From Bacilli bacterium (GTDB taxonomy: Bacteria; Bacillota_I; Bacilli_A; RF39; UBA660): a stretch of 64,000 nucleotides of DNA. The position numbers and the translations under genes are program-made. Of the stretch, positions 80-56,359 are shown piece by piece. The notes beneath the pieces were generated by a model. The model was not told the DNA's origin, searched no databases, and was given only the letters and a program-made list of their open reading frames with translations. How positions within the stretch are numbered: position 1 is the stretch's first letter; each line of letters starts with the position of its first letter. The stretch is taken from NCBI GenBank assembly GCA_017484205.1, contig JAFUTO010000002.1:16334-80333 (forward strand), read 5' to 3'.

Positions 80-2215
80 ATGAAAAAAATATTTGAAAGA
101 GAATTTAGAGGAAGAAAATTAATAGTTGAACAAGGAGAATATGCTAAGCAAGCAGATGGTGCTGTATTAGTTCGTTATGGTGATACTGTAGTATTATCAA
201 CTGTAGTAGTTAGTGACAATGCTAATATATTATCTGATTTCTTCCCATTAATGGTTTTATATCAAGAAAAACTATATTCAGTAGGTAAAATACCTGGTGG
301 ATTTATTAAAAGGGAAGGTAGACCTACAGATGCTGCTACATTAGCTGCTCGTATGATTGATAGACCTATGAGACCAATGTTCCCTGAAGACTTTAGAAAT
401 GAAGTACAAGTTGTTAATACAATATTATCAGTTGATCCTGATTATTCACCAGAATTAACTGCAATGTTTGGTTCAAGTTTATGTACTTGTATATCTAAAA
501 TACCATTTGATGGTCCAATTGCTGGTGTAAAAGTAGGTAGAGTAGATGGTAAATTTATCATTAATCCAACACCGGATGAGTTAGAAAAATCAGATATTGA
601 TTTAACAGTAGCTGGTACTAAGCATGCTATTAACATGGTTGAAGCAGGTAGTAAAGAAGTATCAGAAGATGATATGTTAGAAGCCTTAATGTTTGGTCAT
701 GAAGCAGTTAAAGAATTATGTGCATTCCAAGAAGAAATAATTGGTGAAGTTGGACTAGCTAAGATGGAATATGAACACTTAGATATTGAAGATAGTCTAA
801 AAGATGAAATTTATGCTTTAGCGCATGATAGAATGGACTCTGCATTAAGAATTAAGGAAAAATTAGAAAAATATGAAGCTATAGCTAATTTAAAAGAAGA
901 GATAGTTACTAAATATGAAGAAGATAATAAAGAGTTAGATAAAGAAGAATTAAATGTTTTATTAACTAAGGTTAAATTAGTGTTAGAATCAATTGAATAT
1001 GATATATTTAGATCTATTACAGTTAATGAAAAGACAAGATCTGATGGAAGAGCAATGAATGAAATTAGACCATTATCTGCTGAAATAGATATTTTACCTA
1101 GAACACATGGTTCAGCTGTATTTACTAGAGGTGAAACTCAAGCCTTAGCTACAGTAACATTAGGTGCTTTAAATGAATATCAAGTGTTAGATGGGCTTTC
1201 ATTAGAAGCTGAAAAACATTTTATGTTACATTATAACTTCCCTCAATTCTCAGTAGGTGAAACTGGTAGATATGGTGCGCCTGGCAGAAGAGAAATAGGT
1301 CACGGTGCATTAGGTGAAAGATGTTTAAAACAAGTTATGCCTTCTGAAGATGAATTCCCATATACTGTAAGAGTAGTATCAGAAATATTAGAATCAAATG
1401 GATCTAGTTCGCAAGCTACTATATGTGCTGGTTGTATGGCATTAATGGCAGCTGGTGTACCTATTAAAAAACCAGTAGCTGGTATTGCAATGGGATTAAT
1501 TACATCAAAAGATGAAAAAGATTATACAATATTAACAGATATTCAAGGCATGGAAGACCATTTAGGTGATATGGACTTTAAAGTTGGTGGAACAAGAGAT
1601 GGTATTTGTTCACTTCAAATGGATATCAAAATTAAAGGTATAACTAAAGAAATATTAAAAGAAGCTTTAGCTAGTGCTCATGAAGCTAGAATGAAAATAT
1701 TAGATGTTATGGAAGGTGTTATAGCTAAACCAAGAGAAGAAGTATCTAAGTATGCACCAAAAACAATGACATTTATGATTAATCCAGATAAGATTAAAGA
1801 AGTTATTGGTAGAGGTGGAGATATGATTACTAAGATTATCTTAGAATCATCTAATGTTGAATCAGTAAACGACCCTAACGCTGTTAAAGTAGACTTAATG
1901 GATGATGGTAAAGTTATCATTTATCATAGTGATAAAGAAGTTATTGAAAAAACAGCTAACTGGATTAAAGATATTGCTAGAGAAGTAGAAGAAGGCAAAG
2001 TTTATACTGGTAAAGTAGTTAAAGTTGAAGATTTTGGTTGCTTCGTTGAATTATGGCCTGGTTGTGAAGGCATGGTACATGTGTCTCAATTAGATGAAAA
2101 ACGTGTAGAAAAACCTTCAGATATGGTTAAAGAAGGCGATGAAATAGTTGTTAAAGCTTTAGGATATGATAAGAAAGGTAGATTAAATCTATCTAGAAAA
2201 GAAGCTTTAAAATAG
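80..2215 (+). CDS. pnp: Polyribonucleotide nucleotidyltransferase (PNPase)
   Basis: 711 aa; two RNase PH-like domains, KH and S1 domains (C-terminal GKVVKVEDFGCFVEL...GMVHVSQL); RBS aaggagg 8 nt upstream. Confidence 0.95.
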   Translation: MKKIFEREFRGRKLIVEQGEYAKQADGAVLVRYGDTVVLSTVVVSDNANILSDFFPLMVLYQEKLYSVGKIPGGFIKREGRPTDAATLAARMIDRPMRPMFPEDFRNEVQVVNTILSVDPDYSPELTAMFGSSLCTCISKIPFDGPIAGVKVGRVDGKFIINPTPDELEKSDIDLTVAGTKHAINMVEAGSKEVSEDDMLEALMFGHEAVKELCAFQEEIIGEVGLAKMEYEHLDIEDSLKDEIYALAHDRMDSALRIKEKLEKYEAIANLKEEIVTKYEEDNKELDKEELNVLLTKVKLVLESIEYDIFRSITVNEKTRSDGRAMNEIRPLSAEIDILPRTHGSAVFTRGETQALATVTLGALNEYQVLDGLSLEAEKHFMLHYNFPQFSVGETGRYGAPGRREIGHGALGERCLKQVMPSEDEFPYTVRVVSEILESNGSSSQATICAGCMALMAAGVPIKKPVAGIAMGLITSKDEKDYTILTDIQGMEDHLGDMDFKVGGTRDGICSLQMDIKIKGITKEILKEALASAHEARMKILDVMEGVIAKPREEVSKYAPKTMTFMINPDKIKEVIGRGGDMITKIILESSNVESVNDPNAVKVDLMDDGKVIIYHSDKEVIEKTANWIKDIAREVEEGKVYTGKVVKVEDFGCFVELWPGCEGMVHVSQLDEKRVEKPSDMVKEGDEIVVKALGYDKKGRLNLSRKEALK

Positions 2216-2373: not shown

Positions 2374-4740
2374 ATGAAGAAAAAATATATTATCTTTTTA
2401 TTAGTTCTTTTTATGCCTTTTATGGTACTTGCAGAGGAGCAAACTGGCACAGCTGATCATGTGACAGTAAGAAGTGCGGCGACATCAAAATCTACTTGTG
2501 TTGCGAGTACTAGAGGATGCGCCGAAATAAATGGTTCAATAACTATATTAAGTGATATTATAGAAACAACTGATTCTAATGATGGTTGTCCGTCTAAAAA
2601 GTGGTATAAAGTAAAAGGTAATGATAAAGAGGATGGTAAAGAGTACGAAGGATATGGATGTTCTTCATATATAACAATTAATACCAATGTAGAACCTAAA
2701 ACAGAAGAGGACATTAAAGTTATATCTGATACTGTAATTGCTTATGGTACTATTAATAATGGTTATGTTTATTCAGAACCTGATACTGCTTCCGCTTTGA
2801 GAAGCGATCCAACTACAGAAAAAATTGCTATATTAGGTGATGCAACTAATACTAATGCTAGTGGTTGCAAAGAGATGTATAAAATTTTATATAGTAACTT
2901 AATTTCATATGCTTGTAAGGGTAATTTTACAAATGTTACTAGTGTATCTGTCATGAACACTGCTAGCATTTCATATAATTATGAAACAGAGTTAGCAAAG
3001 TTTCCTGAAAGCTATAGAAGTTATTTAAATAATTTACATAAATTGCATCCTAATTGGAGATTTTATGCTATAGATACTAATTTAAATTTTAGCGATGTAG
3101 TAGCAAGCGAGCAAAAACAAAGTTATTTATCTGGTTCTACTGATTCTGGATATTTTGTAACATTAGAACCAAACTATTATAATTGGAAAACTAATACTTG
3201 GACATCTCAAGATTCAGGCAGTTGGTATGTTGCATCAAAAGAAGCGACGGAGTATTATGTTGACCCTAGAACTTATTTAGATGAAAAACAGGTATTTGTA
3301 TTTGAAGATTCTAGAGCTTATTCTTATCAAGTGGACGCTGCTTTACAAAAAATGATTAATTATGCAGGTGCTAGTAACTTGTCTATTTCATACGATGGTA
3401 AAACATATAGCTATTACGATGCATTTAAAGCATCAGCAGCTTTTTCTAAAGTAAGTGCGATGAGTATATTAGCTAGATCTAGAGTTGAAACAGGCAAGTT
3501 TACTTCTAATAGTGTTAGTGGAACTCGTGCATTTTCATATAATGGTAATACATATTCAGGATATTACAATTATTATAATATAGGTGCATGGGCACACAGT
3601 GGAAGAGATGCTATTACTAATGGATTAATATATGCATACAATGCAGGATGGAATAATAGATATAAGGCTATTATTGAAGGTGCTACATTTATAGCTACTA
3701 AATATGTTTATTCAGGACAAGAAACACAATATTTTCAAAAATTTAATGTAAATCCATCAACTATATATAGTATTTATGGACATCAATATCAAACTAACAT
3801 ACAAGCTCCTACTATAGAAGGAACTTATGTATACTGGGGATTCCAAGATTCAGGTAATATTAATCAACCCGTAGTGTTCCATATACCAGTATATAAAAAT
3901 ATGCCAAGTAAAGCTGCAATTCAACCTACTAGTGGAAATCCAAATAACTGGCTTACATCTATTTCTGTTGATGGCAAGTCATTAACTAATTATACTGATG
4001 CTTCTGGTAAAGAAATCTTTGATGGAGATGTTTATTATAGCTATGATAATAACTGGGATGGTGTTGCTGATGCTGTTTATTCTAATAGTGTAATTAAGTA
4101 TACTGTTTCATATGATACGACTAAAATTAATATAAAAACATCACAAGCTGTATCAACTTCTACTGTAAGTAACACAGGTGATATTGCAATAAAAGATAAA
4201 ACTACTACTATTGATATAGTTGTAACAGCAGCAAACAAAACTACTAAAACATATAGATTAATTGTAACTAGGGATGATAAACCAACAACTGATGAAAATG
4301 GAAATGTTATTTATGCAGATATTGCAAAGGTATTGAGTAGTGTTAGTGTTAAATATAATTCAACATACATGTATGGTCTTGCTTTGGGTACAAGTTATGA
4401 TACAATTAAAAATGCTATTAAAAAAGTAGATAATAGTGTTACTGTTACGATAACTAAAAATAGTAATAACAATACTGGTAATTTAGCTACAGGTGATAAA
4501 ATTAGTATAAATAATGGTAAGGAAACTAAAACATACACTTATGTATTGTATGGAGATTTAAATGGCGATGGTAAAATAAGTGTCCTTGATTTAATACATA
4601 TTAGAAATATTATTTTGGATTCATCTAATCTTACAGGTGCGTATAGAGAAGCAGGAGATATTAACCATGATGGGAAGTCTAATGTTCTTGATTTGATTTT
4701 AGTAAGAAATGATATATTAGGAGATTCTATATCTCAATAG
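2374..4740 (+). CDS. Secreted dockerin-containing putative peptidoglycan hydrolase (SH3b-like + GH73/glucosaminidase-like + cadherin-like beta-sandwich + type-I dockerin)
   Basis: 788 aa; signal peptide MKKKYIIFLLVLFMPFMVLA; SH3b-like segment; ILARSRVETGKF...YNYYNIGAW...YSGQETQYFQKFNV resembles a GH73 active-site region; C-terminal duplicated dockerin repeats GDLNGDGKISVLDL.../GDINHDGKSNVLDL... Confidence 0.6.
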   Translation: MKKKYIIFLLVLFMPFMVLAEEQTGTADHVTVRSAATSKSTCVASTRGCAEINGSITILSDIIETTDSNDGCPSKKWYKVKGNDKEDGKEYEGYGCSSYITINTNVEPKTEEDIKVISDTVIAYGTINNGYVYSEPDTASALRSDPTTEKIAILGDATNTNASGCKEMYKILYSNLISYACKGNFTNVTSVSVMNTASISYNYETELAKFPESYRSYLNNLHKLHPNWRFYAIDTNLNFSDVVASEQKQSYLSGSTDSGYFVTLEPNYYNWKTNTWTSQDSGSWYVASKEATEYYVDPRTYLDEKQVFVFEDSRAYSYQVDAALQKMINYAGASNLSISYDGKTYSYYDAFKASAAFSKVSAMSILARSRVETGKFTSNSVSGTRAFSYNGNTYSGYYNYYNIGAWAHSGRDAITNGLIYAYNAGWNNRYKAIIEGATFIATKYVYSGQETQYFQKFNVNPSTIYSIYGHQYQTNIQAPTIEGTYVYWGFQDSGNINQPVVFHIPVYKNMPSKAAIQPTSGNPNNWLTSISVDGKSLTNYTDASGKEIFDGDVYYSYDNNWDGVADAVYSNSVIKYTVSYDTTKINIKTSQAVSTSTVSNTGDIAIKDKTTTIDIVVTAANKTTKTYRLIVTRDDKPTTDENGNVIYADIAKVLSSVSVKYNSTYMYGLALGTSYDTIKNAIKKVDNSVTVTITKNSNNNTGNLATGDKISINNGKETKTYTYVLYGDLNGDGKISVLDLIHIRNIILDSSNLTGAYREAGDINHDGKSNVLDLILVRNDILGDSISQ

Positions 4741-4753
4741 AAAAGGTGAAAAT

Positions 4754-6160
4754 ATGAAAAAAATAAATATAATTTTAACAATATTTCTTTCATTTTTATT
4801 CGTAGGTAATGTTAAAGCAGCTAGTGCTAAAATAACTGTTAGTCCTGCATCAAAAACAATATTAGTTGGAAATACAATTACAGTTACTGTTACAACATCA
4901 TCTACATCTACTTTGGGAGCTGTTAGTTATACTGTTCAATATAATTCAAATATATTATCTTTGACTTCAACTACTTCTCCAACAGGTGGAGCTAGAACTG
5001 TAGGATATTTTAATTCTAAAGGAAACACAACAATTTCCTATACATATACATTCAAAGCTATTTCTTCTGGTAATGCTACAATATCCATAGTAGGTGCCGA
5101 AGCAGGGGATGATAATGGAACAGCGTTATCAGTAACATCTAGTTCTGCTTCAATCAAAGTAATGACCCAAGCACAGTTGCAAGCTACATATAGTGGAAAT
5201 AACTATTTATCTGGGTTATCTATTGAAGGATATGAATTAGATCCTGCATTCAATAGAGATACGTTAGAATATAATGTAACATTAAAGCCTGAAACAGAAA
5301 ATGTTATAATATCTGCTACAAAAGAAGATTCTACTGCTAGTATTACTGGTGCTGGTGAAATAGCAGTGTCAGAAGGAGCTAATACAATTAGTATTGATGT
5401 TGTTGCTCAAAATGGTAATGTTAGGACTTATGTTATTAATGCTGTAGTTGAAGAATATGATCCGATTAATGTTACAGTGGATGGCAAAAATTATACGATT
5501 GTTAGAAGTACTAAAACACTTGAGTTTAATAATAATTTGTTTACTGCAACAAAAGAAAACATTACAGGTGAGGAAGTACCAGCATTTTATAACGAAATAA
5601 CTGATACTACTTTAATTGCTTTAAAAGACGAAGAAGGCAAGGTAGAATATTTCATCTATAAAGATGATAATTATAAAAAATTTAATGAACTTAAATTAGG
5701 TAGTGTTGATTTGATGGTTCTATCTACAAATGATATTCCTACTGAATATAAAAACGCTACTATTACAGTTAATGAAAAAGAATATGGGGCATATAAATTA
5801 AGTGATACATCTAGATTTTCTTTAATATATGGTACTAATTTAACAAACAATAATACAGGCTTATATGTGTATGATAATTTAGAAAATACATTACAAAGAT
5901 ATGATGCTGATATGGTTAATAATATGACAGCTAAAATTGATAAATTAACTAAGACTAATTATATATTGATTTTTACAAGCGCAGGTTTATTAATTTTGCT
6001 TATTGTCGCTTTGATACCTAAAAAACCAAAATCAAAAAGTGTAGATGAACAATCTATAGAGGAAACACCTGTATTAGATATTGACCAGGCAAAAGAAGAA
6101 CCAAAACCTAAGAAAGAAAAGAAACAACAAGTTAAAAAACAAGATAAAAAGAAGAAGTAA
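4754..6160 (+). CDS. Membrane-anchored cohesin-domain protein (cohesin + cadherin-like domain + conserved juxtamembrane domain + TM helix + Lys-rich cytoplasmic tail)
   Basis: 468 aa; signal peptide; N-terminal ~140 aa with cohesin-like pattern (ITVSPASKTILVGNTITVTV...YTVQYNSNILSL...ISYTYTFKAISSGNATISI); NNYLSGLSIEGYELDPAFNRDTLEYNV cadherin-like domain; C-terminal hydrophobic helix ILIFTSAGLLILLIVALI followed by a K/E-rich tail; lies 14 nt downstream of the dockerin gene. Confidence 0.6.
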   Translation: MKKINIILTIFLSFLFVGNVKAASAKITVSPASKTILVGNTITVTVTTSSTSTLGAVSYTVQYNSNILSLTSTTSPTGGARTVGYFNSKGNTTISYTYTFKAISSGNATISIVGAEAGDDNGTALSVTSSSASIKVMTQAQLQATYSGNNYLSGLSIEGYELDPAFNRDTLEYNVTLKPETENVIISATKEDSTASITGAGEIAVSEGANTISIDVVAQNGNVRTYVINAVVEEYDPINVTVDGKNYTIVRSTKTLEFNNNLFTATKENITGEEVPAFYNEITDTTLIALKDEEGKVEYFIYKDDNYKKFNELKLGSVDLMVLSTNDIPTEYKNATITVNEKEYGAYKLSDTSRFSLIYGTNLTNNNTGLYVYDNLENTLQRYDADMVNNMTAKIDKLTKTNYILIFTSAGLLILLIVALIPKKPKSKSVDEQSIEETPVLDIDQAKEEPKPKKEKKQQVKKQDKKKK

Positions 6161-6174
6161 TTCTTCTTTTTTGT
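6148..6174 (+). terminator. Rho-independent terminator
   Basis: agaagaag-taa-ttcttctt hairpin overlapping the stop codon, followed by tttttt. Confidence 0.65.
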
Positions 6175-6202
6175 ATACTATATGTCTACTTTACATTTAT
6201 TT

Positions 6203-6244
6203 TTGACAAAAGCATTTACATAATTATTGCTGCTTTGGTATAAT
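6203..6244 (+). promoter_or_regulatory. Promoter region: perfect TTGACA (6203-6208) and extended -10 TGgTATAAT (6236-6244)
   Basis: Both hexamers are visible, but their spacing is non-canonical (27 nt), so there may be two overlapping promoters; RBS aggagg precedes the ATG at 6268. Confidence 0.4.
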
Positions 6245-6267
6245 TAAGAAAATAGGAGGTATGTATT

Positions 6268-8157
6268 ATGAGGAAGTTTTTATTTTTAATACTTACATTA
6301 TTATTTATTCCTTTGTGCGCGAGTGCTGCAGAATATGATATATACGAAGATACTATAAGATACTATGGTACTATTAATTATAGCTTTGTATATTCAGAAG
6401 CTAATACTAAGTCTGTACTTGCATCCAAAGGAAATATATATGAAAGGGTAGCTATATTAGGTAATGCAACAAATGCTGATGATTTAAATGATGACTGCAT
6501 TAATATGTATAGCATTATATATCAAGAAAAAGTAGCTTATGTTTGTGCTAATAATGTTATTAATATTGTTTCTGCTGAAATATTAGAAACAAGTAATATA
6601 ACTTATAATTATGATAGGGAATTATCTAAATTTCCAGAAAGTTATAGGAGTTATATTGATACGCTACATCAACAACATCCTAATTGGAGATTTTATGCTA
6701 TAAATACTTATTTGGAATATTCAGATGTAGTAAATTATGAAAAAAATGCTAACTATATAGATAGTACAACTAATAATGTGTCATATTTTGATACATTAGA
6801 AGCTATAAATTATAACTATCAAAATGAAACTTATGTGTACCACAAAGATGGTAAATGGGTTACACCAAGTACAGAAGCAACGGCATATTTTATAGATCCA
6901 AGAAACTATTTAACTGAGGAAAAAGTGTTTGTATTTGAAGATTCAAGAACATATTCATATCAAACTCCGGAACCAGTAAAACAAATATTAAAATATGTTG
7001 ATAATAATGAAATTGATTATGCTGATGTATATAAACATGCCTCAAACTTTTCGAAACTTAGTCCATTAACTTTAATTGCAAGAGCTAGATTGGAAAATAC
7101 AACATATACAGGAAATGTAAATGAACAAATAGTAGAAAAAGCTACATATTTAGCAACTAAATATACTTATAATGGACAAGAAACACAATACTTCCAAAAA
7201 TTCAACGTAAATCCAAATACGTTAAGTAATACATATGCTCATCAATATGAAACAAATATTGAAAATCCAATTGTTGAAGCTTCCTATATATATGAAGCAT
7301 ATAAAGAAGCAGATGCGTTAGAAAATTCAATAGTTTTCCATATACCTGTATATAATAATATGCCAGGTGAAAGTTCTATAAAACCTCTTGATGGAAATCC
7401 AAATAACTGGTTATCAACTATAACTATTAATGATGAGCCAATAGATAATTTTGATGGAGATAATTATTATAGTTATGATAATAACTGGGATGGCGAGGAA
7501 GACGCAGTTTATCCTGACCATGTTATTACATATAATGCAGAATGGGATGCTGAAAGTATTACTATAGATGCGTCTGCAATATCAGAAGAAGCTGGTATAT
7601 TAGGAACTGGTGAAATATCACTTCCTGATAAAGAAACAATCGTTGATTTAGTTGTTATGGCAGAAAATAATACAACTAAAACATATCGTGTAGTTATTGT
7701 AAAAAATGATCCTCCATATCCAGATATTGATTGGGTATTGAGTCAAATTGCTATTAAATACGATGACAAATATTTAAGTGGGTTATCAATTGGTAGTGAT
7801 TATAATGTACTAAAAGATGCTATTACAAATATAAGCGACTTAGTTACAACTGAAATAACTCCAAGAGAAGGTAATACAACAGGAACTTTTGCTACAGGGG
7901 ATATGATAACAGTAACTAGTGGTCCACAAGTTCGTAATTTTACATATGTATTATATGGTGACTTGAATGGTTCTGCAACAATTAGTATAATAGACTTAGT
8001 AGCAATTAGAAACATAATATTAGATGAATCTAATTTAGAGGGAGCATATAGAGAAGCAGGGGATGTAAATCGTGACGGAAAAGTTAGTATACTTGATCTA
8101 GTAGCTGTTAGGAACGATTTATTAGGTACTCATATTGTTCAATTGCCACAAGAATAG
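6268..8157 (+). CDS. Secreted dockerin-containing paralog of 2374..4740 (SH3b-like + truncated GH73-like region + cadherin-like + dockerin); possibly catalytically inactive
   Basis: 629 aa; signal peptide; shares the KFPESYRSY..LH..HPNWRFYAI and YxGQETQYFQKFNVNP blocks with 2374..4740 but lacks ~45 aa including the YNYYNIGAW block; C-terminal dockerin whose first repeat is degenerate (GDLNGSATISIIDL). Confidence 0.6.
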   Translation: MRKFLFLILTLLFIPLCASAAEYDIYEDTIRYYGTINYSFVYSEANTKSVLASKGNIYERVAILGNATNADDLNDDCINMYSIIYQEKVAYVCANNVINIVSAEILETSNITYNYDRELSKFPESYRSYIDTLHQQHPNWRFYAINTYLEYSDVVNYEKNANYIDSTTNNVSYFDTLEAINYNYQNETYVYHKDGKWVTPSTEATAYFIDPRNYLTEEKVFVFEDSRTYSYQTPEPVKQILKYVDNNEIDYADVYKHASNFSKLSPLTLIARARLENTTYTGNVNEQIVEKATYLATKYTYNGQETQYFQKFNVNPNTLSNTYAHQYETNIENPIVEASYIYEAYKEADALENSIVFHIPVYNNMPGESSIKPLDGNPNNWLSTITINDEPIDNFDGDNYYSYDNNWDGEEDAVYPDHVITYNAEWDAESITIDASAISEEAGILGTGEISLPDKETIVDLVVMAENNTTKTYRVVIVKNDPPYPDIDWVLSQIAIKYDDKYLSGLSIGSDYNVLKDAITNISDLVTTEITPREGNTTGTFATGDMITVTSGPQVRNFTYVLYGDLNGSATISIIDLVAIRNIILDESNLEGAYREAGDVNRDGKVSILDLVAVRNDLLGTHIVQLPQE

Positions 8158-8166
8158 GGTGATTAT

Positions 8167-9543
8167 ATGAAAAAAATATATACAATTATTACAATTGTTA
8201 TATCGTTATTATTTATAACTAATGTAAAAGCTGATGGTACAAGTGCTACACTAACACCATCGCCTTTATCTTGTTATGAAGGGGAAACATGTAGTATAAC
8301 TTTGAATCTTAATTCAAATATTGAAATAGGTGGTGTTAGTTATAAACTTTCATATGATACTTCAATGTTAGAATTTGTAGATGGTAAGAAGAATAAGATA
8401 GCGGATGGTATTATACAGGTTATTGATGAACCTCGTGCTACATCTGCTTCTTATACTTATAAATTTAAATCATTGAAAACAGGTGAAAGCACAGTTAAGA
8501 TAGTGAGTATGGAAGTTTCTGATGCAAATGAAGAAATGCCAAATGATATTACCCCAAGCACATTGCCTAGTGCCTCAGTATCGATGACAACTAGACCTGT
8601 AACAGCTCCTACGACACCAACTACAACAACTAAAAAAAGTAACAATGCTAATTTATCAAATTTGTCAATTGATGGTGTATCATTGACTCCTGCTTTTAAT
8701 TCCAGTACTACTACATATACAGCAAGTTTAAACCCTGATGCAACTAGTATAAATATAAGTGCATCAACTGAAAATAGTGGTGCTAAGGTATCAGGTGCAG
8801 GAACAATACCTGTATCAAAAGGTAATAATAATATAGAAATAAAAGTTACAGCAGAAGATGGCACAACTAAAACGTATACTATTACAGCAAATGTCCCTGA
8901 TTCAACAGTAGGAACTATAAATGATAAAAATATTGTTACAAAAAGTGATGATAATCCAATCAGTGATTCGTTTTCAGAAACAACTATTAATATTGATGGA
9001 CAAGATGTGCCTGCTTATTATAATGATGCTACAGGTACTACAATAGTAGCTGTTGATAATGGTAATGGTGAAGTAGAATATTATACTGTTGACGAAGATG
9101 GGAATTTAGGAAAATATGATGAAGTTGATTCAGATAAAATAGATTTAATGTCATTAGCAGTAGCTTTAGGTGATGTTCCTGAAGGATATGTTGAAACTAC
9201 AATTATTATTGATGGTAAAGAATATAAGGCATATAAAAAAGCTGATGACTCAAGATTCGTATTATTATATGGTACAAACTTAGCGACAGGTGATACAGGA
9301 TTCTTTGTTTATGATACAGTAGATAGAACAATTCAAAAATATGATGTTGATAGTTTTAATGATTTGTTAGAAAAAAATGCTAAATTATGGATACTATTAT
9401 GGATTTTAATATTTACATGTATAGGGTTATTAATTCTATTAATAATCGCGTTAATATTATTGAGTAAAAGAGATAAAGTTATAAAAAAATATAAAAATTA
9501 TATACAAGGTAAAAAAGAGGAGATAAATGAAGAAAGAAGTTAG
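8167..9543 (+). CDS. Membrane-anchored cohesin-domain protein, paralog of 4754..6160
   Basis: 458 aa; signal peptide; cohesin-like N-terminal domain (..SYKLSYDTSMLEF...ASYTYKFKSLKTGESTVKIV); T/P-rich linker; cadherin-like domain (NANLSNLSIDGVSLTPAFNSSTTTYTASL); juxtamembrane domain conserved with 4754..6160 (DVPAYYN...GEVEY...DLM...GKEYKAYK..DSRF.LLYGTNL..TG.FVYD); TM helix plus basic tail. Confidence 0.6.
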   Translation: MKKIYTIITIVISLLFITNVKADGTSATLTPSPLSCYEGETCSITLNLNSNIEIGGVSYKLSYDTSMLEFVDGKKNKIADGIIQVIDEPRATSASYTYKFKSLKTGESTVKIVSMEVSDANEEMPNDITPSTLPSASVSMTTRPVTAPTTPTTTTKKSNNANLSNLSIDGVSLTPAFNSSTTTYTASLNPDATSINISASTENSGAKVSGAGTIPVSKGNNNIEIKVTAEDGTTKTYTITANVPDSTVGTINDKNIVTKSDDNPISDSFSETTINIDGQDVPAYYNDATGTTIVAVDNGNGEVEYYTVDEDGNLGKYDEVDSDKIDLMSLAVALGDVPEGYVETTIIIDGKEYKAYKKADDSRFVLLYGTNLATGDTGFFVYDTVDRTIQKYDVDSFNDLLEKNAKLWILLWILIFTCIGLLILLIIALILLSKRDKVIKKYKNYIQGKKEEINEERS

Positions 9544-9561
9544 TTCTTTCTTCATTTATTA
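9529..9561 (+). terminator. Rho-independent terminator overlapping the 3' end of 8167..9543
   Basis: gaagaaagaa-gttag-ttctttcttc hairpin followed by atttatt. Confidence 0.55.
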
Positions 9562-9570
9562 TGGTATAAT
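9540..9570 (+). promoter_or_regulatory. Extended -10 promoter (TGgTATAAT at 9562-9570) for the glycosyltransferase gene
   Basis: tggtataat motif 17 nt upstream of RBS aggtgg and the ATG at 9587. Confidence 0.4.
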
Positions 9571-47073: not shown

Positions 47074-50000
47074 ATGAAGATGCAAAGTAGTAAGTTTAAA
47101 GGAATTTTGTTATTTTTAGTAAGTTTTATGGTATTTACAATTGTACCAACGGTTGCTAAAGCTGCAACATACAATTTTAGTTTTAGCGCATACAATTGTG
47201 GTAATAGTACATATACAGAGGATGATATAATTGATAATTGTATTCTAGAATATTATGATGGCAATTTAGCAAAGCTAAATGATGGAGTCGTTGTAGATAC
47301 AGATAAATACATCATGCTAGTTTTGGAATACGAGTATACTAGCGGTACGGGTGCAGCAGTTTTATCAGTTGATACTTCATATGATAATACTTTTGTTGAA
47401 AATTTATCATTCACTCAAACAGCTATTGATGCGGATAACCCAATTTTTACAAGATCAATTGCTAGAAAATGGAATTCTTCAACAAGTGATACTGGTAGTT
47501 TAGTTGTATTAGCTTATGATTCAGACGATGAAACTTTGACTTATGATCCAGGTGCGATTGGATTTATGTTCTTCAAAGTAAAGGACACCGCACCAGCTGG
47601 TCAAACTTTTACGTTTGCTATATCTGATGATCCTGATGATACTCGTGTCAGTGATTCCACAGGTAATATACATATCGATTGGGCAGCTTCTCCAATATCT
47701 TTCAAGGTTGCTGGATCTGCAACTTCGACTGATACTTCTTTAAAAACTTTAAATGCTAAAGGAAGTAATGCAACTGATTATTCAATTTATATGGATAATG
47801 GTTATACAACTGAATTTAGTGCAGGAACATCAAATAGAACGTTCTATGCAGTAGTTCCATATGATGTTACTTCAATTACTTTAAATGGTGAAGTAACAGA
47901 TTCTGCTGCTCAATTTATTCCAGGAAATGGTACTACTTATAGTAGAAATCATAATTTAGATGTAGGAAATAATGAAATAACATTTAGAGTTACCGCACAA
48001 AGTGGTACTACTGAGGATTATTATATTAATGTCTATAGATTAAGTAATGATGCATCATTACAGACATTAACTACTTCAGGTAATGTTACATTGAATGGTT
48101 TTGCTTCAAATGTATATAGTTATGATATTTCAACTACTTATGCAACTGTTACAACAAATGTAACATCAAAACCTACTCATGAAAATGCTTTTGTTACAAA
48201 TAGTGAAGATGTATTATGGGATAAAAATACAAGTTCAGGTAGTTATACTCAAACTTTTGCTTTACCAGGTTTTGGTACTGATGTTAATACCAAAGTTGTC
48301 AAGGTACAAGCAGAAGATTGTTTAAGTGAATATGCAAGTGTTCCAGGTAATACTTGTCATACACAAGATTATACAATTAATGTTAGTAGATTAAATCCAT
48401 CTACAGATGCAACTTTAAAAGCATTAGCTGTTGATGGAACTTCAATATTTGTAGAAGGTACTACAGATTATGATCAAGGTTCACAACCATATTCTAAATC
48501 ATCAGCTGATATAACTGCTACAGCTAACGATTCAAAAGCTACAGTAGTTGCTTCAACTGTTGGAAATAAAACATTAAATGTTGGCGATAATACTATTACA
48601 GTTACGGTAGAAGCAGAGGATTGTAAGGTAATTACTGGTTCTAATCCAAGTGGTAGTTGTCATACACAAGATTATACAATTAAATTCTATAGAAGAAGTA
48701 ACAATGCTAATTTAAATACATTAGTTGTTACTGGAACAGGTGTATCTATGAATCCTGCATTTACGGATCATAGTTATGTTGGACCATATACTGTAAGTTA
48801 TCCATCAGGAGCAACATCTGTTAATGTCAAAGCAAGTGTTGAAGAAGAACATGCCACAATTAATATTACAGGTATCGAAGATGGTATTGACTATTCCAAT
48901 TTAAGTAATCAATTAAGCATAATTGTTACTGCAGAAGATGGTAATACTAAAACTTATGTATTAAGATTTAGTAAAGTATTATCTAGAGAGTCTAGACTTG
49001 ATAGTTTAACTGTTAGCGGTGTATCATTATCTCCATCACCATTTGATCCAGATACATATACATATTCTGGTAGTGTAGATGGTAATGTTGAAAAAGTAAC
49101 TATTGGTGCAACATTAAAAGATGCTGATAAATCAACATTTATGGAAGGCTATGGACCTAGAGAAGTTGAATTAAATTATGGTGATAATACATTCTATGTT
49201 AGAGTACAAGGTGAAGCAGATGATGCCACTAGTTCATATAATGTCACAATAACAAGAAATGAAAAAACAATTAAAACATTAAAAGAAATTTCAATTGATA
49301 GTGTACCTATTGATCCATTTGATCCAGACACAATTACTTATACTGTAGATCCAGTCGATTATTCAACAACTTCAGTTACAGTTAAAGCAGTTGTTACAGA
49401 AGGCAGTGATGCTACATATACAGTATTAAATCAATCAGGTGGTGTAGCCGTAGGTGGTGTTATTAACTTAAATACAGGTGATAATACTGTTACAATAAGA
49501 GTTAGAGCTCAAGATGGTTCTACTGGTGATTATACAGTAACTATACCAAGAGAAAAGAATAATGTTGCTACTGTAGATAGTGTAACCGTATTTGGTAATG
49601 CTGCTACATGTGATAACGATACAAGAAAATGTACTATTACAGTAACAAATGATCATTCATCAATCGCACCTACAGATGTGGTTGTAATTCCAACTGATTC
49701 TAGTGCTACAGTAACTAAACCTACAGATACAAGAAATTTAGTAGTATCTACTCCAAGTAATCCAAGAACTAATACTTATATCTTCAGTGTTAAAGCAGAA
49801 GATGGTGTTACTACAAAGGAATATGAATTAATTATTACAAGAGAAGCATCAGATGATGTATCTTTGAAAGAAGTATCAGTATTTACAAATGAAGGTCAAA
49901 CTTATAGATGTACAACATTTACTGGATTTGCATGTACAATTTCAGTACCAAGTACAACTACAGGTTATACACTTTCAGCTACACCTAATTCAGGCGCAGC

Positions 50001-53000
50001 AACTGTAGATGGTACAGGTTCATTTACTATGGATGGTGCATCTGATAGTAGTCAAATTAAGGTATTAACAGTAACAGCAGAAGATGAACATAGTCAAGTA
50101 TATCAAATTAAAATTGAAAGAAGTAAATCTACCAACGCTAATTTAAAGACTATTACTATTGATGGTGTAGAAATAGATGGCTTTGATGGAGTTAATAAAC
50201 AAAATTATACTGTTACTGTTCCTGGTACTACTGAAGCAATTACATTAGGCGCTGAAGTAGATGATACAGGAAAAGCAACTATCGAAAATAGTGATACTAT
50301 TTTAGGTAGAAAAGATCTTGTTTATGGATCAGAAGGAAATGTTTATACATTAAAAGTTATTGCTGAAGCTGGCGAAGGTTCTGTTAAAACATATACAGTT
50401 ACAGTAATAAGAAGTAATAATATAGATTCTACATTATCTATGATTCAAATAGGTGGTAGTAATTTAAATGGTTTTGCATCTAACACATATGCATATAACT
50501 ATAATGATACATATTATCAAGATTTAGGTAACGAAAACCAATTAGTAGTACCTTATAATAAAACTAGCATTACTTTGTTAGGTGTTCCTACAGATACCAC
50601 TTATGGAACAGTTAAATATAATGGTACTGCATCAACTGAAGCAACAACTATAAACTTAACAACAGGTGTTAATACTATTACTGTAACGGGTGTTGCGCAT
50701 GATACAAGTAAAACAACAGATTATGTATTAAAAGTATTTAGAACATTGAATTCAAATAATTCAATTACTAAATTAGAGGTTGCTGGTGTAGAAGCTACAT
50801 GGGATGATGAAAACAACAAATATACAGTTACTGTTCCAAATAGTGTTGATAGTGTTGGAACATTAAATGTTAATGTCACATTACCTGCAAAACAAGTAGC
50901 TACAGACCCTGATGCAACTGTAACGATACCAACTATGTCATTAACAACAGATAACGTTAATAATTATCAAATTATTGTTACATCAGAAGCTGGTGAAGCA
51001 AAAACATATCCAGTTGAAATAACAAGAGCAAAATCAACTGTAAAAACATTAACTGCATTAGCTGTAACAAATGGTGCGTTCAGTCCGTCATTTACTCCAA
51101 ACACTAATGAATATACAGTTATTGTACCTGCTTCAACTACTGAATTTACAGTAAGTTATACTAAAGCAGATCCTAAAGAAACTGTAACTGGTGCTAGAAG
51201 ATATGACATGACTTCAAGCAATATGGATGTTATAGTTGAAGTTCAAGCTGAAGATCCAGAAGAACCAGTTAATAGATATACATTACATATTGAAAGAACT
51301 GAGTCAGCAGTTAATACTTTAAGTAGTATTGTTGTTAATTCAGGAGAGACTATTTATGCTTTAAATCCATTATTTAGTCCAGATAAAACTTCATATGTAG
51401 TAGAAGTACCTGGTACTGTATCACAAGTTAATATTACAGCTACACCTACAGACAGTAGATCTACTGTAACAGGTGATGGTGTTAAAACAGTAAGTAGGGG
51501 TGATAATACATTTACTATTACATCTACTTCTGAAACAAATACATTTATTAATTATACTGTTAATGTTAAAGTATTAGATAAAACAATAAATACATTAAAT
51601 AATATAACAGTAACTTTGGATGATGGAACAGTTTTACCATTAAGTCCTAATTTTGCATCTGATATTCAAAATTATACAATTGCTGATCAACCATATAGTG
51701 TTACTACAGTAAATATCGGTGTAGAAAGAACTGATAGTGATTCAACAGTTAAAATTGGTAATGTTGATTATACAATGACTGATGAAACTAATGGTATTAC
51801 AGTACCACAAAGTCTAAACGCTGGTGCGAACACAATAAAAGTTGTTGTTACAGCACAGGATGGAACTTCTAGTACATATAATATCCGTATTAGAAGAGAA
51901 GAAAACGATGATGCTACTTTAAGGACATTAAATGTTTCAGGTGGATCTTTATCACCTACATTTGCTCCTGAAATTACATCATATTCAGTAGAATTAGATA
52001 GTGATGTAACTACATTATCTCCATCAGAAGTAACTGCAATAGCTACTGATTCAAATGCAACAGTAACAAAAGATCCAACAGTTACAATAAGTGATGATGG
52101 AACTACTATATATGATATCTTAGTAACAGCTCAAAATGGTACAACAAAAACATATTCAATAACTGTATCTAGAAAGAAAAGTGCTGATGCTAAGTTGAAG
52201 AGAGTAGATTTGACTGGCGCTTCTATTAGTCCATCATTTACTCCAAACAATGATCAATATACATTAAATATTTCTTCAACATCAACAGAGTTTACAATTC
52301 AAGGTATTCCTAATCATGATAATGCTACTGTGTCATATAATGGTGTAGGATCAACAGAAGGTATTACATATCCTGCTTCAACTGATACTGTTTCTATTAC
52401 AGTAACAGCAGAAGATGGAAGTACAACAAAGACGTATACATTTAATGTTGTAACTGCTACTGCAAGAGACGCTACATTAGCTGACTTGGAAGTATTAGGA
52501 TATACTTTAGATCCTGAATTTGATACAACTACTGTTGTATATGATATTGGTGAAGTTGAGTTTGGAACAGATAGTTTAACTATTATTGCGACTCCTACAA
52601 ATACTAATGCTACAGTTAATTATTATGTAGATGGTGTTAAGCAAGATGATAATGTCGTTGATTTACCACAAGCATTAGGTAGTAAGAGTATTACAATTGA
52701 AGTTGTACCTGCTACAGGTTCAAAAGCGCAAGCTAAGTATTATTCTGTTAATTATGACATGGTTACATCTAGAAATAATTATTTAGCTACATTAATACCA
52801 AGTAGTGGTACATTAAGCCCATCATTCTCAAAAGGTAGAACTGCTTATTCAATGACAGTACCTTATGATACTGAAAGCATATCATTCCAAGTAACTACTG
52901 ATAATAACCAATCATCAGTAAGTAATGATGGTACAACATTTATGTTTACAGATGCTGAACCAGCTACTTATGTATATAATGATTTGCGTGTAGGCACAAA

Positions 53001-54150: not shown

Positions 54151-54166
54151 GGGGGCGAAACGAGGT

Positions 54167-56359
54167 ATGAAAAATATGAAAAAATTAAAATCATTGGTTG
54201 CCATAGTACTAGGATTTTTCCTAGTCTATGCAACTACTGTATTTGCAGCAGGATCTGTAACTGTAGGAATGGGTGGCAATTCATCAGTTGCTGTTGGTTC
54301 TACTATTGATGTTACAATTTACCTTGATAACGTTAATGCAAGTACAGAAGGTATAATTGCTTTTCAAGGTGATATTCATTTTGATACAAATTATTTAGAA
54401 TTAGTAACAGTAACTCCTGCAAGTAGTCCTTATTCATTTGATTATGAAGTAGGTGGAACTGATGTTGTATATTTAACTGGACTTGATACTTCATTTAGAA
54501 AAGGTATCAAATCCAATACAACAATTTATACTTTCACATTTAAAGCATTAAAAAATGGTACTACAACTGTAACATTAGAAAATGTTATAGCAGGTGATCC
54601 TAGTGGTGACGTAAGTGCAAATAACTCAAGTAAAGTAATTAATATTGGTGGTAGTTCAAGTACACCAACAGTTAAAAGTAGCGATGCTGATTTAAAATCA
54701 TTAAGTGTTTCTGGTTATAATATTAGTCCTGCTTTTGATGCAGCAACAACTACTTATACACTTACTGTACCAAGTGATGCAAGCAATGTTACTATTGCAG
54801 CATTACCTTCAAGTGGTAAAGCTTCTGTTAGTGGTGTAGGTTCTAAAACTTTATCAGATGGATTAAATTCAGTAGAAATTACAGTAACAGCAGAAGATGG
54901 TACTAAAAAGACATATACAGTTAATATTACAAAAGAAGCAAGTACAGTTCCAACAACTAAGAGTAGTGATGCTACACTAAAATCATTGGAATTGGCTGGT
55001 GGATATACTGTATCACCAACATTTACTTCTGATAAAACTACATATTCATTAACTGTTCCAAATAATGTTACTTCATTAGATGTTACAGCAATTGCAAATG
55101 ATGCAAATGCTAAAGTAGAAGTAACTGGTAATACAAACTGGAAAACAGGAGTTAACCCTGTTAAAGTTACAGTAACAGCAGAAGATGGTACAACTAAAGT
55201 ATATACAGTTAACGTAACAAGAAAAGATAATACTTCAGCTGTAAGTGGAGGTACTACTCCTACTAAGAGTTCTAATAATTATTTAAAAGAATTATCTACT
55301 AAAAATGGTGATATAAGTCCAGTATTTAGTAAAACAACAAGTAATTATAGTGTTACTGTTCCATATAATGTTTCTAGATTAGACTTAAATTATTTAGTGG
55401 AAGATGAAAAATCTTCAGTTAAAATCAATGGTAATAGTGATTTTAAAGTAGAATCAGTTAACACTGTTGAAGTTGTTGTAACAGCAGAAGATGGAAGTCA
55501 AAGAACTTATACAATTAATGTTACAAGATCTTCAAAAACAGGTGAAAACTTATTAGATGATATTATTATTGGTGGTGGAAGTACAAGTTTAAATCCAAAA
55601 TTTAAACCAACAACTTATGATTATGGTATTGAATTAGATCGTAATACAACTAGTATTGATATTACACCTATAACAAGTAATCCAAATGCTAAAGTGGAAG
55701 TAACAGGTAATGAAAATTTACAAGAAGGAAATAATACTATTTTGATTAAAGTTACTGATCAAGAAGGCTTTGTTCAATATTATAAAATTAACGCTTATAA
55801 GAAAGCTACAAATGGAATTGTTCTATTTGGTATAGATTTTCCCAGGTGGATGGTTTATACGGCTATTGCGTTGGTTCCTGCCTTATTAATCCTATTAGTA
55901 CTTGCTAAAAAGAAACAAGAAAATAAGGAATTAGCACCAGCAGCTTCAACAATTGAATTCAAGCCAGAATTTAATTTCTCATCTAAAAATGGTACGGATG
56001 ATGATTATGTTGAATCAGGTGGCGTATTAAACCAAGTAGTTAAAGAAAAAGAGGAATCTCTTGAAAAAACAGCTGTTGATATTAGAGATATTCCAACTAG
56101 TGCAGTTGGTATTACTGAAGGAATATCTACTGGATTAAATAAGAGTATGATGGAAGAATATCCAAGAAAGGTTATAGAAGAAGAGCCTGAGCAAATACCT
56201 TATGATCCATATGATGATAAAGTTACAAAAGAAGAACTTATCGATGCGATTAATGAAAAAAATCCAGAAAAGTTAAAAATACTATATCAACAAGAAATGT
56301 TAAATAGAGAAAAAGAAAGAGTAAAAGAAGCTGAATATCATGAAAGACATAGAAGATAA
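54167..56359 (+). CDS. Membrane-anchored cohesin-domain protein (cohesin + five cadherin-like domains + TM helix + ~170-aa acidic cytoplasmic tail)
   Basis: 730 aa; signal peptide; cohesin-like domain (GSVTVGMGGNSSVAVGSTIDVTIYLDNV...IHFDTNYLELVTV...TIYTFTFKALKNGTTTVTLENV); TM segment WMVYTAIALVPALLILLVLA followed by KKKQENKE...; lies 16 nt downstream of the adaptor gene. Confidence 0.7.
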   Translation: MKNMKKLKSLVAIVLGFFLVYATTVFAAGSVTVGMGGNSSVAVGSTIDVTIYLDNVNASTEGIIAFQGDIHFDTNYLELVTVTPASSPYSFDYEVGGTDVVYLTGLDTSFRKGIKSNTTIYTFTFKALKNGTTTVTLENVIAGDPSGDVSANNSSKVINIGGSSSTPTVKSSDADLKSLSVSGYNISPAFDAATTTYTLTVPSDASNVTIAALPSSGKASVSGVGSKTLSDGLNSVEITVTAEDGTKKTYTVNITKEASTVPTTKSSDATLKSLELAGGYTVSPTFTSDKTTYSLTVPNNVTSLDVTAIANDANAKVEVTGNTNWKTGVNPVKVTVTAEDGTTKVYTVNVTRKDNTSAVSGGTTPTKSSNNYLKELSTKNGDISPVFSKTTSNYSVTVPYNVSRLDLNYLVEDEKSSVKINGNSDFKVESVNTVEVVVTAEDGSQRTYTINVTRSSKTGENLLDDIIIGGGSTSLNPKFKPTTYDYGIELDRNTTSIDITPITSNPNAKVEVTGNENLQEGNNTILIKVTDQEGFVQYYKINAYKKATNGIVLFGIDFPRWMVYTAIALVPALLILLVLAKKKQENKELAPAASTIEFKPEFNFSSKNGTDDDYVESGGVLNQVVKEKEESLEKTAVDIRDIPTSAVGITEGISTGLNKSMMEEYPRKVIEEEPEQIPYDPYDDKVTKEELIDAINEKNPEKLKILYQQEMLNREKERVKEAEYHERHRR

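Follow-up and report, generated by a model that had tools for sequence, protein, structure and literature searches.

A tandem copy of a predicted secreted hydrolase that lacks part of its catalytic domain raises the question of whether it still cuts and, if not, what it might do instead. We asked this of P2, an ORF at positions 6268 to 8157 on the plus strand of the window (the whole stretch of 64,000 nucleotides that was analysed). P2 starts at an ATG and encodes 629 amino acids (MBR1376262.1), as a sequence-only reading of this DNA had described. Its host is one uncultured gut Bacilli genome, a MAG with 28% GC. The reference for our comparisons was the intact paralogue P1 (2374 to 4740, plus strand; 788 amino acids; MBR1376260.1), which was characterized through PDB sequence matches, an AF2 model, and Foldseek.

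Two tandem proteins of the GH73 family

P1 consists of a signal peptide, two SH3b-like modules, a GH73 glucosaminidase domain, a cadherin-like module, an unassigned module, and a type I dockerin. P2 aligned with P1 at 49% identity across the full length of P2, and all of the indels between them were in frame. The dS between the two was 0.5 to 1.0 or undefined (NG86 dN/dS), near saturation, leaving only the relative ordering of domains usable. Of the two N-terminal SH3b-like modules of P1, the first is absent from P2, a difference of about 88 amino acids that the sequence-only reading did not mention. Its single SH3b-like module (6340 to 6567, plus strand) was placed by the alignment gap relative to P1 and by SH3_3 at this position in homologues; Pfam on P2 itself was below significance for this module. 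The cadherin-like beta-sandwich module of P2 (7396 to 7707, plus strand) was recognized by phmmer with the cadherin-like module of the anchor proteins and by PF12733 in homologues, and it keeps 24 of 25 family-conserved positions.

In relatives, which are uncultured Bacilli, there is a single hydrolase-anchor pair directly after pnp, and the positional orthologues of P1 are the hydrolases directly downstream of pnp. This genome carries a diverged tandem second pair, P2 and the anchor C2. In a neighbor-joining tree with 200 bootstraps, 63 replicates placed P2 basal to 26 taxa and 48 paired it with P0002 as its sister; P1 by itself did not rank with the sister groups recovered most often for P2. 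Thus, with P2 unplaced, the tree does not separate a lineage-specific duplication with acceleration from an older or imported cassette.

We then considered the family assignment. In a phmmer search against the PDB, P1 matched AtlA-gl (6fxo, 5.7e-12), SagB (3.7e-7), and AtlE (1.6e-5), and it matched the NCBIfam SagB model at 4e-11, far under the cutoff of that model. The Pfam Glucosaminidase model matched neither P1 nor P2 at an E value of ≤0.1. A sequence search of the PDB with P2 found no GH73 match, and by sequence P2 is linked to the family only via P1. Foldseek connected both proteins to SagB (3e-12 for P1 and 1e-7 for P2), with the lysozyme-like alpha-helical core fold present. Because Pfam and NCBIfam made no GH73 call above cutoff, the assignment comes from the sequence and fold searches of the PDB: P1 matches solved GH73 enzymes by sequence, and both P1 and P2 match by fold. 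The GH73 assignment suggested by the sequence-only reading was therefore borne out.

The solved S. aureus proteins SagB (6fxp/6u0o), AtlA-gl (6fxo), and AtlE (4pia) belong to this fold and sequence family. Several features are common to them and to the family of P1 and P2: a catalytic Glu that closes the central helix within an ETG context, a loop of the type YYNFYG(V/I)GA, a GQxTxY motif, and a motif like Y-A-(S/T)-D. All three have the L-lobe, or beta-lobe, whereas P2 does not. The family of P1 and P2 also differs from them in having Y-x-T-N in place of YATD, a large N-terminal domain extension, SH3b-like and cadherin-like modules, and a dockerin instead of a transmembrane anchor or repeat-based wall binding. 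The catalytic domain of Clostridium perfringens Acp (5wqw, 8yxn) is likewise an intact glucosaminidase with a beta-lobe, and it has no dockerin.

The beta-lobe is missing from P2

The alignment located the deletion precisely. In P1, 57 residues (T373 to R429) lie between the catalytic Glu E372 (in RVETG) and Y430 (in YKAIIEG). This block, encoded at 3490 to 3660 on the plus strand, holds a hairpin, a YYNYYNIGA loop, and the helix NGLIYAYNAGW, and it has no counterpart in P2. Only 8 residues (N277 to V284) lie between E276 (in RLENT) and N285 (in NEQIVEK) of P2. These form the linker NTTYTGNV, the deletion junction (7096 to 7119, plus strand), which was modelled with a pLDDT of about 83 to 84. 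The net in-frame loss is thus 49 amino acids. The sequence-only reading had described an in-frame deletion of about 45 amino acids; the in-frame loss stands, and the size needs correcting. The deleted block that it quoted was also about 7 residues too long, as KAIIEG is kept in P2 as EQIVEK. A 9-amino-acid shortening at P1 residues 331 to 339 was considered as a second P2-specific change and was rejected, since that segment varies in length across the family.

What P2 has lost is the whole beta-lobe: a beta-hairpin, the invariant YYNxxNIGA loop, and one helix. The AF2 model of P1 has the hairpin (strands 200 to 202 and 205 to 207) and the helix (226 to 237) between the catalytic helix and the connecting helix. 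In the model of P2, a helix at 167 to 176 is followed by E177, with neither hairpin nor helix at the deleted site. With pLDDT values of 95 for P1 and 92 for P2, the models show that what is missing is precisely the stretch of hairpin, loop, and helix that separates two core helices. AlphaFold confidence is no proof of folding for a deletion variant. The beta-lobe forms one half, or wall, of the active-site groove, recognizes the lactyl/peptide side of MurNAc, and is present in every GH73 enzyme and lysozyme compared in the structural literature (PMC5330529, PMC4752226, PMC7170848).

Next, we examined how unusual this deletion is. When the 120 best homologues were aligned, the segment holding the deletion was 95 to 123 residues long in 119 proteins and 57 residues long only in P2. 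This gap in length is neither alignment noise nor ordinary family variation, and the beta-lobe is present in P1 and in the 119 other homologues. The deletion took out 21 of the 23 block positions that are conserved at ≥90% in the 119 homologues. Among these are N399, N402, and W426 (119/119 each), Y398 (117/119), and A421 (118/119); the lost residues include three of the domain's twelve family-invariant residues. The proposal that the deletion strikes a part of the GH73 domain that is conserved and central to its function was thus correct. A junction-spanning query found no other carrier of the deletion in 1.84 billion representative proteins (132 representative hits). Six apparent junction-spanning matches all hold the full YYNFYNIGA block and were discarded as alignment artefacts. 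A contig search with a profile from the P1/P2 alignment recovered just two distant loci, at 30 to 32% identity, and no other genome carrying two pairs.

A singleton deletion in a tandem gene could come from the assembly or binning, as a collapsed or chimeric contig of two paralogous copies. Tandem paralogues are prone to collapse or mis-joining in MAG assemblies, and a contig look-up for P2 gave no independent record. However, P1 and P2, at 49% protein identity, are too diverged to collapse, and the junction is in frame and falls exactly between two secondary-structure elements. Records from NCBI, ENA, and Logan assemblies (3 contigs) carry the identical P2 sequence, and GC content does not shift along the region. 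We therefore consider an artefact very improbable.

Retained catalytic residues and constraint

The sequence-only reading had held that P2 lacks the catalytic core. This did not fit the residues that P2 retains. The N-terminal part of its alpha-lobe (6589 to 7095, plus strand), which ends in the catalytic helix and E276 (codon 7093 to 7095), keeps 34 of 37 conserved positions plus all 8 in the catalytic helix. The C-terminal part (7120 to 7377, plus strand), which contains the connecting helix EQIVEKATYLATKY, the GQETQYFQKFNVNP motif, and HQYETN, keeps 30 of 38. The E372 residue of P1 aligns with the Glu of ETG in AtlA-gl and SagB and is invariant in 119 of 119 homologues. P2 keeps this general acid as E276, which closes a helix in the model. 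The connecting-helix aromatics, GQETQYFQKFNVNP, and HQY(E)TN, the equivalent of YATD, are kept as well. That last motif reads HQYQTN in P1 and HQYMTN in the family consensus; the Tyr is kept in P2, and the Asp is replaced by Asn family-wide. A D-to-N change in YATD lowers activity in AtlA-gl (PMC7170848), whereas in AtlWM it caused no loss of activity, as cited in PMC4633669.

It had also been suggested that the deleted block contains the second catalytic residue, in a YxxxGxxxA motif. In FlgJ, Auto, and E. faecalis AtlA, a second Glu is indeed located in the beta-lobe (PMC4752226, PMC9108991). We found no conserved acid in the lost block: Asp or Glu occurs in at most 37 of 119 homologues at any column, and the hairpin of P1 has none. 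"YxxxGxxxA" was not found as a GH73 motif in the GH73 literature that we searched. The suggestion is thus only partly right, since it is the lobe that was lost, and not a conserved second carboxylate. For AtlE and LytB, the nearest relatives with a solved structure, a single Glu suffices; AtlE has only one essential acidic residue (PMC5330529, PMC4633669).

P2 could still be a hydrolase of peptidoglycan or of another glycan, with an open groove and a substrate-assisted Glu that would act on a different or bulkier substrate or would need a partner such as C2. The retained Glu, catalytic helix, aromatics, and YATD-like Tyr agree with this, as does the single-Glu mechanism of AtlE and LytB. LytB remains active although its beta-lobe is much reduced (PMC4633669), which shows that activity can survive a shrinking of the lobe, and the physiological activity of SagB requires a membrane partner (the SagB-SpdC complex is deposited as 6u0o). 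However, the pneumococcal LytB GH73 domain (4q2w, 7pj3) keeps a groove-shaping lobe element, whereas the 8 residues that remain in P2 are too few for any lobe. The family-invariant N399, N402, and W426 are absent, as is the entire left wall of the groove, and a beta-lobe is found in every GH73 and lysozyme structure compared (PMC5330529). We consider continued hydrolysis rather unlikely. Since one wall of the groove is lost though the catalytic Glu is kept, P2 is probably non-cutting.

Outside the deletion, P2 keeps about 89% (139/157) of the family positions conserved at ≥90%, compared with 49% identity overall. In the remnant of its GH73 domain, 29% of sites depart from the family plurality, compared with 13 to 26% in intact orthologues. 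Substitutions at near-invariant sites lie at the junction (T373N, Y430N, and G436K, the last a Gly in 118 of 119 homologues), and the C-terminal alpha-lobe has two further unusual ones, A478N and Q473E. The clustering at the junction suggests that the site was remodelled once the lobe had been lost. P2 does not resemble a decaying gene, given an ORF of 629 codons that is intact in a genome of 28% GC, together with the conserved positions that are kept. Constraint on P2 outside the deletion is evident; the deleted form itself is known from one genome.

We also looked for expression and export signals. Upstream of P2 (6236 to 6259, plus strand), by consensus matches only, there is a candidate extended -10 element, TGGTATAAT, at 6236 to 6244, with a -35-like TTTACA at 6215 to 6220, and a strong candidate ribosome-binding site, AGGAGG, at 6254 to 6259, 8 nucleotides before the ATG. 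These signals are homologous to those of P1, where TGGTATAAT is found at 2342 to 2350. A Sec signal peptide, MRKFLFLILTLLFIPLCASA (6268 to 6327, plus strand), was predicted by eye.

These observations bear on whether P2 is a functionless relic, in which a recent, lineage-specific lesion struck a redundant duplicate and the conserved residues reflect constraint from before the deletion. P2 is a singleton among the 120 homologues and in the search of 1.84 billion representatives, the cluster to which it belongs contains no other member, and the intact copy 1.5 kb upstream makes it redundant. Its catalytic Glu and groove residues are intact, as expected after a recent loss, and the divergence of the remnant is close to that of the intact orthologues. 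However, the ORF, promoter-like site, ribosome-binding site, signal peptide, and dockerin of P2 are all intact, as is its partner gene C2, and every indel relative to P1 is in frame. The rare substitutions at the junction suggest time and adaptation since the deletion. A relic is therefore possible but unlikely. That the catalytic Glu and most alpha-lobe groove residues are conserved is unusual for an old pseudoenzyme and is compatible with a recent deletion or with residual or altered activity.

Dockerin, anchors, and a probable non-catalytic role

P2 carries a type I dockerin at 7954 to 8124 (plus strand), identified by Pfam PF00404 and by PDB dockerin matches. The sequence-only reading had called its first repeat degenerate, with one Asp lost. 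Loop 1, DLNGSATISIID (7960 to 7995), which corresponds to DLNGDGKISVLD in P1, has the ligands D1, N3, S5, and D12. Thus, D1, N3, and D12 are kept, and the Asp at position 5 has indeed been replaced by Ser. In 89 of the 93 homologues that could be parsed, this position is Asp, and P2 is the only one with Ser, a residue that EF-hands accept as a ligand there. A G6-to-A change in the same loop also occurs in 6 full-length homologues. Loop 2, DVNRDGKVSILD (8062 to 8097), has D1, N3, D5, and D12. The Dockerin_1 model (PF00404) scored 41.3 bits for P2, covering profile positions 1 to 57 of 57, and 40.1 bits for P1, against a cutoff of 22.9. The loss of an Asp was therefore upheld and the degeneracy was not.

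The anchors are less clear. C1, the anchor of the first pair (4754 to 6160, plus strand; 468 amino acids), has a signal peptide, a cohesin-like module, a cadherin-like module, a C-terminal domain, a transmembrane helix, and a charged tail. C2, the anchor of the second pair (8167 to 9543, plus strand; 458 amino acids; MBR1376263.1), runs from a signal peptide through a diverged cohesin-like module (8233 to 8586), a cadherin-like module (8653 to 8889), a C-terminal domain, and a transmembrane helix (9385 to 9462) to a short charged tail. The Pfam Cohesin model matched neither C1 nor C2 at an E value of ≤0.1, and NCBIfam likewise made no cohesin call above cutoff for them. Within the anchor family, PF00963 (Cohesin) matched 4 of 26 members, with a best value of 3.1e-6, and the match in the L003 orthologue was flagged as weak. 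The anchor-family profile matched PDB cohesins at E values of 0.002 to 0.3, over the first ~50 residues only. Within the second pair, divergence is greatest in the cohesin-like module of C2, whereas the dockerins of P1 and P2 share 70% identity. The claim that P2 is loaded on its own cohesin anchor had adjacency as its basis, and the weak cohesin assignment of 8167 to 9543 does not carry it. Giant ORFs downstream were considered as scaffoldins with more cohesins and were rejected, as cadherin-like repeats are all that they have in common with the anchors.

Taken together, the most likely reading, to which we give a probability of about one half, is that P2 is an expressed, dockerin-tethered, catalytically dead or crippled derivative of a GH73 enzyme. 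P2 is the hydrolase half of a strongly diverged second tandem copy of a two-gene module. The first gene of the module encodes a putatively secreted GH73 glucosaminidase that ends in a dockerin, and the second encodes a membrane-anchored protein that carries a cohesin-like module. The beta-lobe has been excised in frame, and the 8-residue linker now joins the helix of the catalytic Glu to the connecting helix. The alpha-helical lobe that is kept, with its Glu, aromatics, and Y-x-T-N, is predicted to fold as in solved GH73 enzymes, with one groove wall and the family-invariant Asn/Asn/Trp gone. P2 is probably secreted and may be tethered to the surface via its dockerin, and productive binding and cleavage of glycan strands would be lost. 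The non-catalytic role that had been proposed for P2 is the most likely one. P2 might serve as a peptidoglycan- or wall-binding module, or it might be a competitor or regulator that fills cohesin sites otherwise holding active P1.

A more specific version is that P2 and C2 form a regulatory module. The dead GH73 domain would still bind peptidoglycan via its alpha-lobe and SH3b-like module, and the P2 dockerin, with recognition helices near-identical to those of P1, would compete for or sit on cohesin anchors and so tune the site and amount of P1 autolysin display. We regard this version as doubtful. The dLytM factors EnvC and NlpD are degenerate peptidoglycan-hydrolase domains that serve as regulators. 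They resemble P2 in concept, since catalysis is lost and a hydrolase-derived domain is kept for binding or regulating wall hydrolysis. However, they have a LytM/M23 fold, have lost metal ligands rather than a lobe, and are conserved in many species, unlike the singleton P2. Searching the literature for pseudoenzymes among peptidoglycan hydrolases yielded only the Csp pseudoproteases.

The design of a GH73 enzyme with a dockerin and a cohesin partner has already been noted in Ruminococcus bicirculans, where a GH73 enzyme goes together with the only dockerin and the only cohesin of the genome, a non-cellulosomal arrangement like that of P1 and C1 (as cited in PMC4611034). The likeness is one of description: that account is a genome annotation of a single pair and reports no lobe-less paralogue. 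The practical weight of the finding is limited, as the deleted form comes from a single MAG and is a one-genome curiosity. If P2 does work non-catalytically, it would be a natural domain of the GH73/lysozyme fold that survives without its beta-lobe. The mechanism of GH73 enzymes is still debated between a single Glu and two Glu residues, and P2 would be a ready-made construct for the share of the lobe in binding versus catalysis. For the organism, this reading, if true, would mean that an autolysin is displayed and controlled through a cohesin-dockerin pair outside cellulosomes.

Organization of the tandem hydrolase-anchor locus

Positions 2374-9543 hold four ORFs, all in the same orientation: the intact GH73-dockerin hydrolase P1 (2374-4740, + strand, 788 aa, MBR1376260.1), the adjacent membrane anchor C1 (4754-6160, +, 468 aa), the paralogous hydrolase P2 (6268-8157, +, 629 aa, MBR1376262.1), and the anchor of the second pair, C2 (8167-9543, +, 458 aa, MBR1376263.1). 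NCBI lists P1, P2, and C2 under a MAG named "Bacilli bacterium." Identity is 49% between P1 and P2, whose alignment runs from end to end, and 37% between C1 and C2. GC is uniform at ~0.28-0.30 over all four genes. In the positional orthologues from five related metagenomic loci, one hydrolase-anchor pair immediately follows pnp and is itself followed, where the contig extends that far, by a glycosyltransferase, a CNNM-like gene, glyA, and folD. In the window the pair is present twice, in tandem, and the only two dockerins and two cohesin-like modules of the whole window are those of P1/P2 and C1/C2.

Upstream of each copy of the pair we found an extended -10 TGGTATAAT and an AGGAGG-type RBS. 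This -10, followed by a strong RBS, lies at 2342-2350, 6236-6244, and 9561-9569, before P1, P2, and the glycosyltransferase, whose start is probably ATG 9587 (MKKILITC...) rather than the listed 9527. A 37-nt inverted repeat with a 16-bp stem (9523-9559) spans the C2 stop codon and scored as terminator-like on the minus strand only in our scan. Farther downstream, a 7154-aa ORF (25466-46927, +), over which GC climbs to 0.33-0.38, carries at least 33 cadherin-like beta-sandwich repeats. The same repeats occur in the ORFs at 47074-54147 (+, 2358 aa) and 54143-56356 (+, 738 aa). They are all that the anchors share with these giant ORFs; queries with the anchors and P1 detected no cohesin-like or dockerin modules in the three.

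The C terminus of PNPase is ~93% identical between the related locus L004 (2-676) and the window (80-2215), while the hydrolases next to pnp (L004 834-3164 and P1) are only 59% identical. Thus, the hydrolase-anchor module evolves fast, much faster than its neighbours. P1 orthologues show 69-74% identity; against P2, all members of the close homologue group fall at 41-52%. P2 forms the longest branch of the tree (root-to-tip 0.95 versus 0.75-0.87), and its placement in the tree is ambiguous. Therefore, the second pair may have arisen by local duplication followed by acceleration, or it may be an older or imported second cassette; both origins are compatible with the tree.

Absence of the beta-lobe from P2

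Pfam and NCBIfam made no call for the hydrolase domain of P1 or P2. However, P1 matched solved GH73 glucosaminidases in sequence (S. aureus AtlA-gl 6fxo, 5.7e-12; SagB, 3.7e-7; AtlE, 1.6e-5; C. perfringens Acp, 1e-3), and AlphaFold domain models built from 94-95 homologues were confident (pLDDT 95.0 for P1 and 92.1 for P2). Thus, the GH73-like assignment proposed in the sequence-only reading is upheld, which makes P2 a derivative of this family. The P1 model runs from the catalytic helix, ending at E372, through a loop, a beta-hairpin, the YYNYYNIGA loop, and the helix NGLIYAYNAGW to a connecting helix. In the P2 model, the catalytic helix ends at E276 and only 8 residues precede the connecting helix. 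The absent segment corresponds to what is termed the "L-lobe" in AtlE and SagB and the "beta-lobe" in FlgJ, Auto, and AtlA. Every GH73 and lysozyme structure compared has this lobe, which comes after the catalytic Glu and lies on the cleft side recognising the MurNAc lactyl/peptide (PMC5330529).

The catalytic Glu is separated from the following conserved helix by 57 residues in P1 (T373-R429) and by 8 in P2 (NTTYTGNV), a net in-frame loss of 49. The sequence-only estimate of ~45 aa was close, but the block quoted as lost was ~7 residues too long; KAIIEG of P1 is not deleted and has the P2 counterpart EQIVEK. When the 120 top database homologues were aligned, this segment measured 95-123 residues in every protein but P2, which had 57. 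The lost block holds 23 positions that are at least 90% conserved over the 27 closest homologues, and 21 of these are deleted, with N399, N402, and W426 (each 119/119), Y398 (117/119), and A421 (118/119, all P1 numbering) among the deleted residues. A 121-residue query spanning the junction returned 132 hits from 1.84 billion representative proteins, nearly all of which aligned downstream of the junction only or in two separate stretches. Six hits appeared to span the junction and were rejected as deletion carriers, since all six have the full YYNFYNIGA block. We found no description of a GH73 without the beta-lobe in the literature searched and no instance in the sequence searches. That the deletion was created by misassembly is highly improbable, because three assembly sources yield the identical P2 protein and P1 and P2 differ too much to have been collapsed. 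The deletion is genuine and sharply bounded; P2 is a structural variant of an enzyme type already known, and it is confined to one MAG.

P1 and its orthologues also have two N-terminal SH3b-like modules. The first (2434-2700, ~88 aa) is absent from P2, which has thus lost a putative wall-binding module besides the beta-lobe.

Retained catalytic residues and possible fates of P2

P2 keeps the general-acid Glu, the sole residue identical across GH73 structures; all enzymes in which it has been mutated lost activity (PMC5330529, PMC7170848). Conserved positions are kept at 8/8 sites in the catalytic helix, 34/37 in the N-terminal part of the domain, and 30/38 in the C-terminal part, including GQETQYFQKFNVNP and HQYETN. 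To say that P2 lacks the catalytic core was therefore an overstatement. The deletion had also been said, provided that the domain is GH73-like, to remove the second catalytic residue region. A second carboxylate is present in the hairpin of FlgJ, Auto, TM0633, and E. faecalis AtlA (PMC4752226, PMC9108991) but is unused by the closest solved relatives, AtlE (PMC5330529) and LytB (PMC4633669). In the lost block, Asp or Glu reaches at most 37/119 at any column, with none in the P1 hairpin. Thus, the position was right and the label was not. In the whole P1/P2 family, the YATD of GH73 is Y-x-T-N (consensus HQYMTN; HQYQTN at 3787-3804 in P1, HQYETN at 7246-7263 in P2). An AtlA-gl D217N mutant, which carries the same Asp-to-Asn change, is strongly impaired (PMC7170848), though D-to-N does not lower activity in AtlWM (as cited in PMC4633669), and the activity level of even intact family members is in question.

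We asked what these losses would mean for P2. By substrate-assisted catalysis with its retained Glu, P2 may still have some residual or altered activity, a reading that is less likely than the other two below; a reduced lobe can suffice, as in LytB (PMC4633669), but P2 has lost one groove wall and three invariant residues. We place the probability at about one half that P2 is expressed, secreted, and tethered through its dockerin, that these losses abolish productive substrate binding and cleavage, and that it then works without catalysis, binding the wall or serving as a competitor/regulator. A recent relic with no function is a lesser but credible possibility, and the deleted form is known from one genome. 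The features of P2 argue against long-term neutrality. Its 629 codons are intact at 28% GC, and it keeps 139/157 family-conserved positions outside the deletion, against 49% overall identity. Of all parts compared between P1 and P2, the GH73 parts and the dockerin have the lowest dN, with dS near saturation. In the GH73 remnant, 29% of sites depart from the family plurality, compared with 13-26% in intact orthologues outside the P1 clade. Rare substitutions are grouped at the junction: T373N, where 27/27 close homologues have Thr; Y430N; and G436K, where 118/119 have Gly. This grouping hints at remodelling after the deletion.

Proposed tethering of P2 and possible meaning of the lobe loss

The P2 dockerin comfortably passes the Pfam model (41.3 bits; P1, 40.1). 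Its first loop keeps D1, N3, and D12 and has Ser at position 5, found there in P2 only among 93 homologues, although five others have Ser in loop 2; G6-to-A is shared with six intact homologues. Ser is an accepted position-5 ligand in EF-hands. Thus, one Asp is indeed lost, but calling the repeat degenerate was too strong. Between the two dockerins, helix positions 10/11 change conservatively (VL to II or IL), and R17-N18 is unchanged. The dockerin (7954-8124, versus 4540-4719) is the best-conserved module of the second pair, at 70% identity, and the cohesin-like module (8233-8586, versus 4820-5173) is the worst, at ~25% to C1 and all orthologues, which are mutually 42-69% identical. Such asymmetry would be unexpected had the two pairs co-diverged into separate specificities.

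C1 and C2 had no Pfam Cohesin match, 4 of 26 relatives matched PF00963, and a family profile matched PDB cohesins at E values of 0.002-0.3, which weakly suggests a cohesin identity. Given this and the divergence of the C2 module, the claim that P2 is loaded on its own anchor stands on adjacency, and cross-docking on C1 is equally possible. The same base design, a GH73-dockerin with a single cohesin partner, was recorded earlier for a non-cellulolytic Firmicute, Ruminococcus bicirculans (as cited in PMC4611034). For the wider field P2 is of moderate to low interest; researchers on the structure and enzymology of GH73 could use it as a natural lobe-deletion construct.
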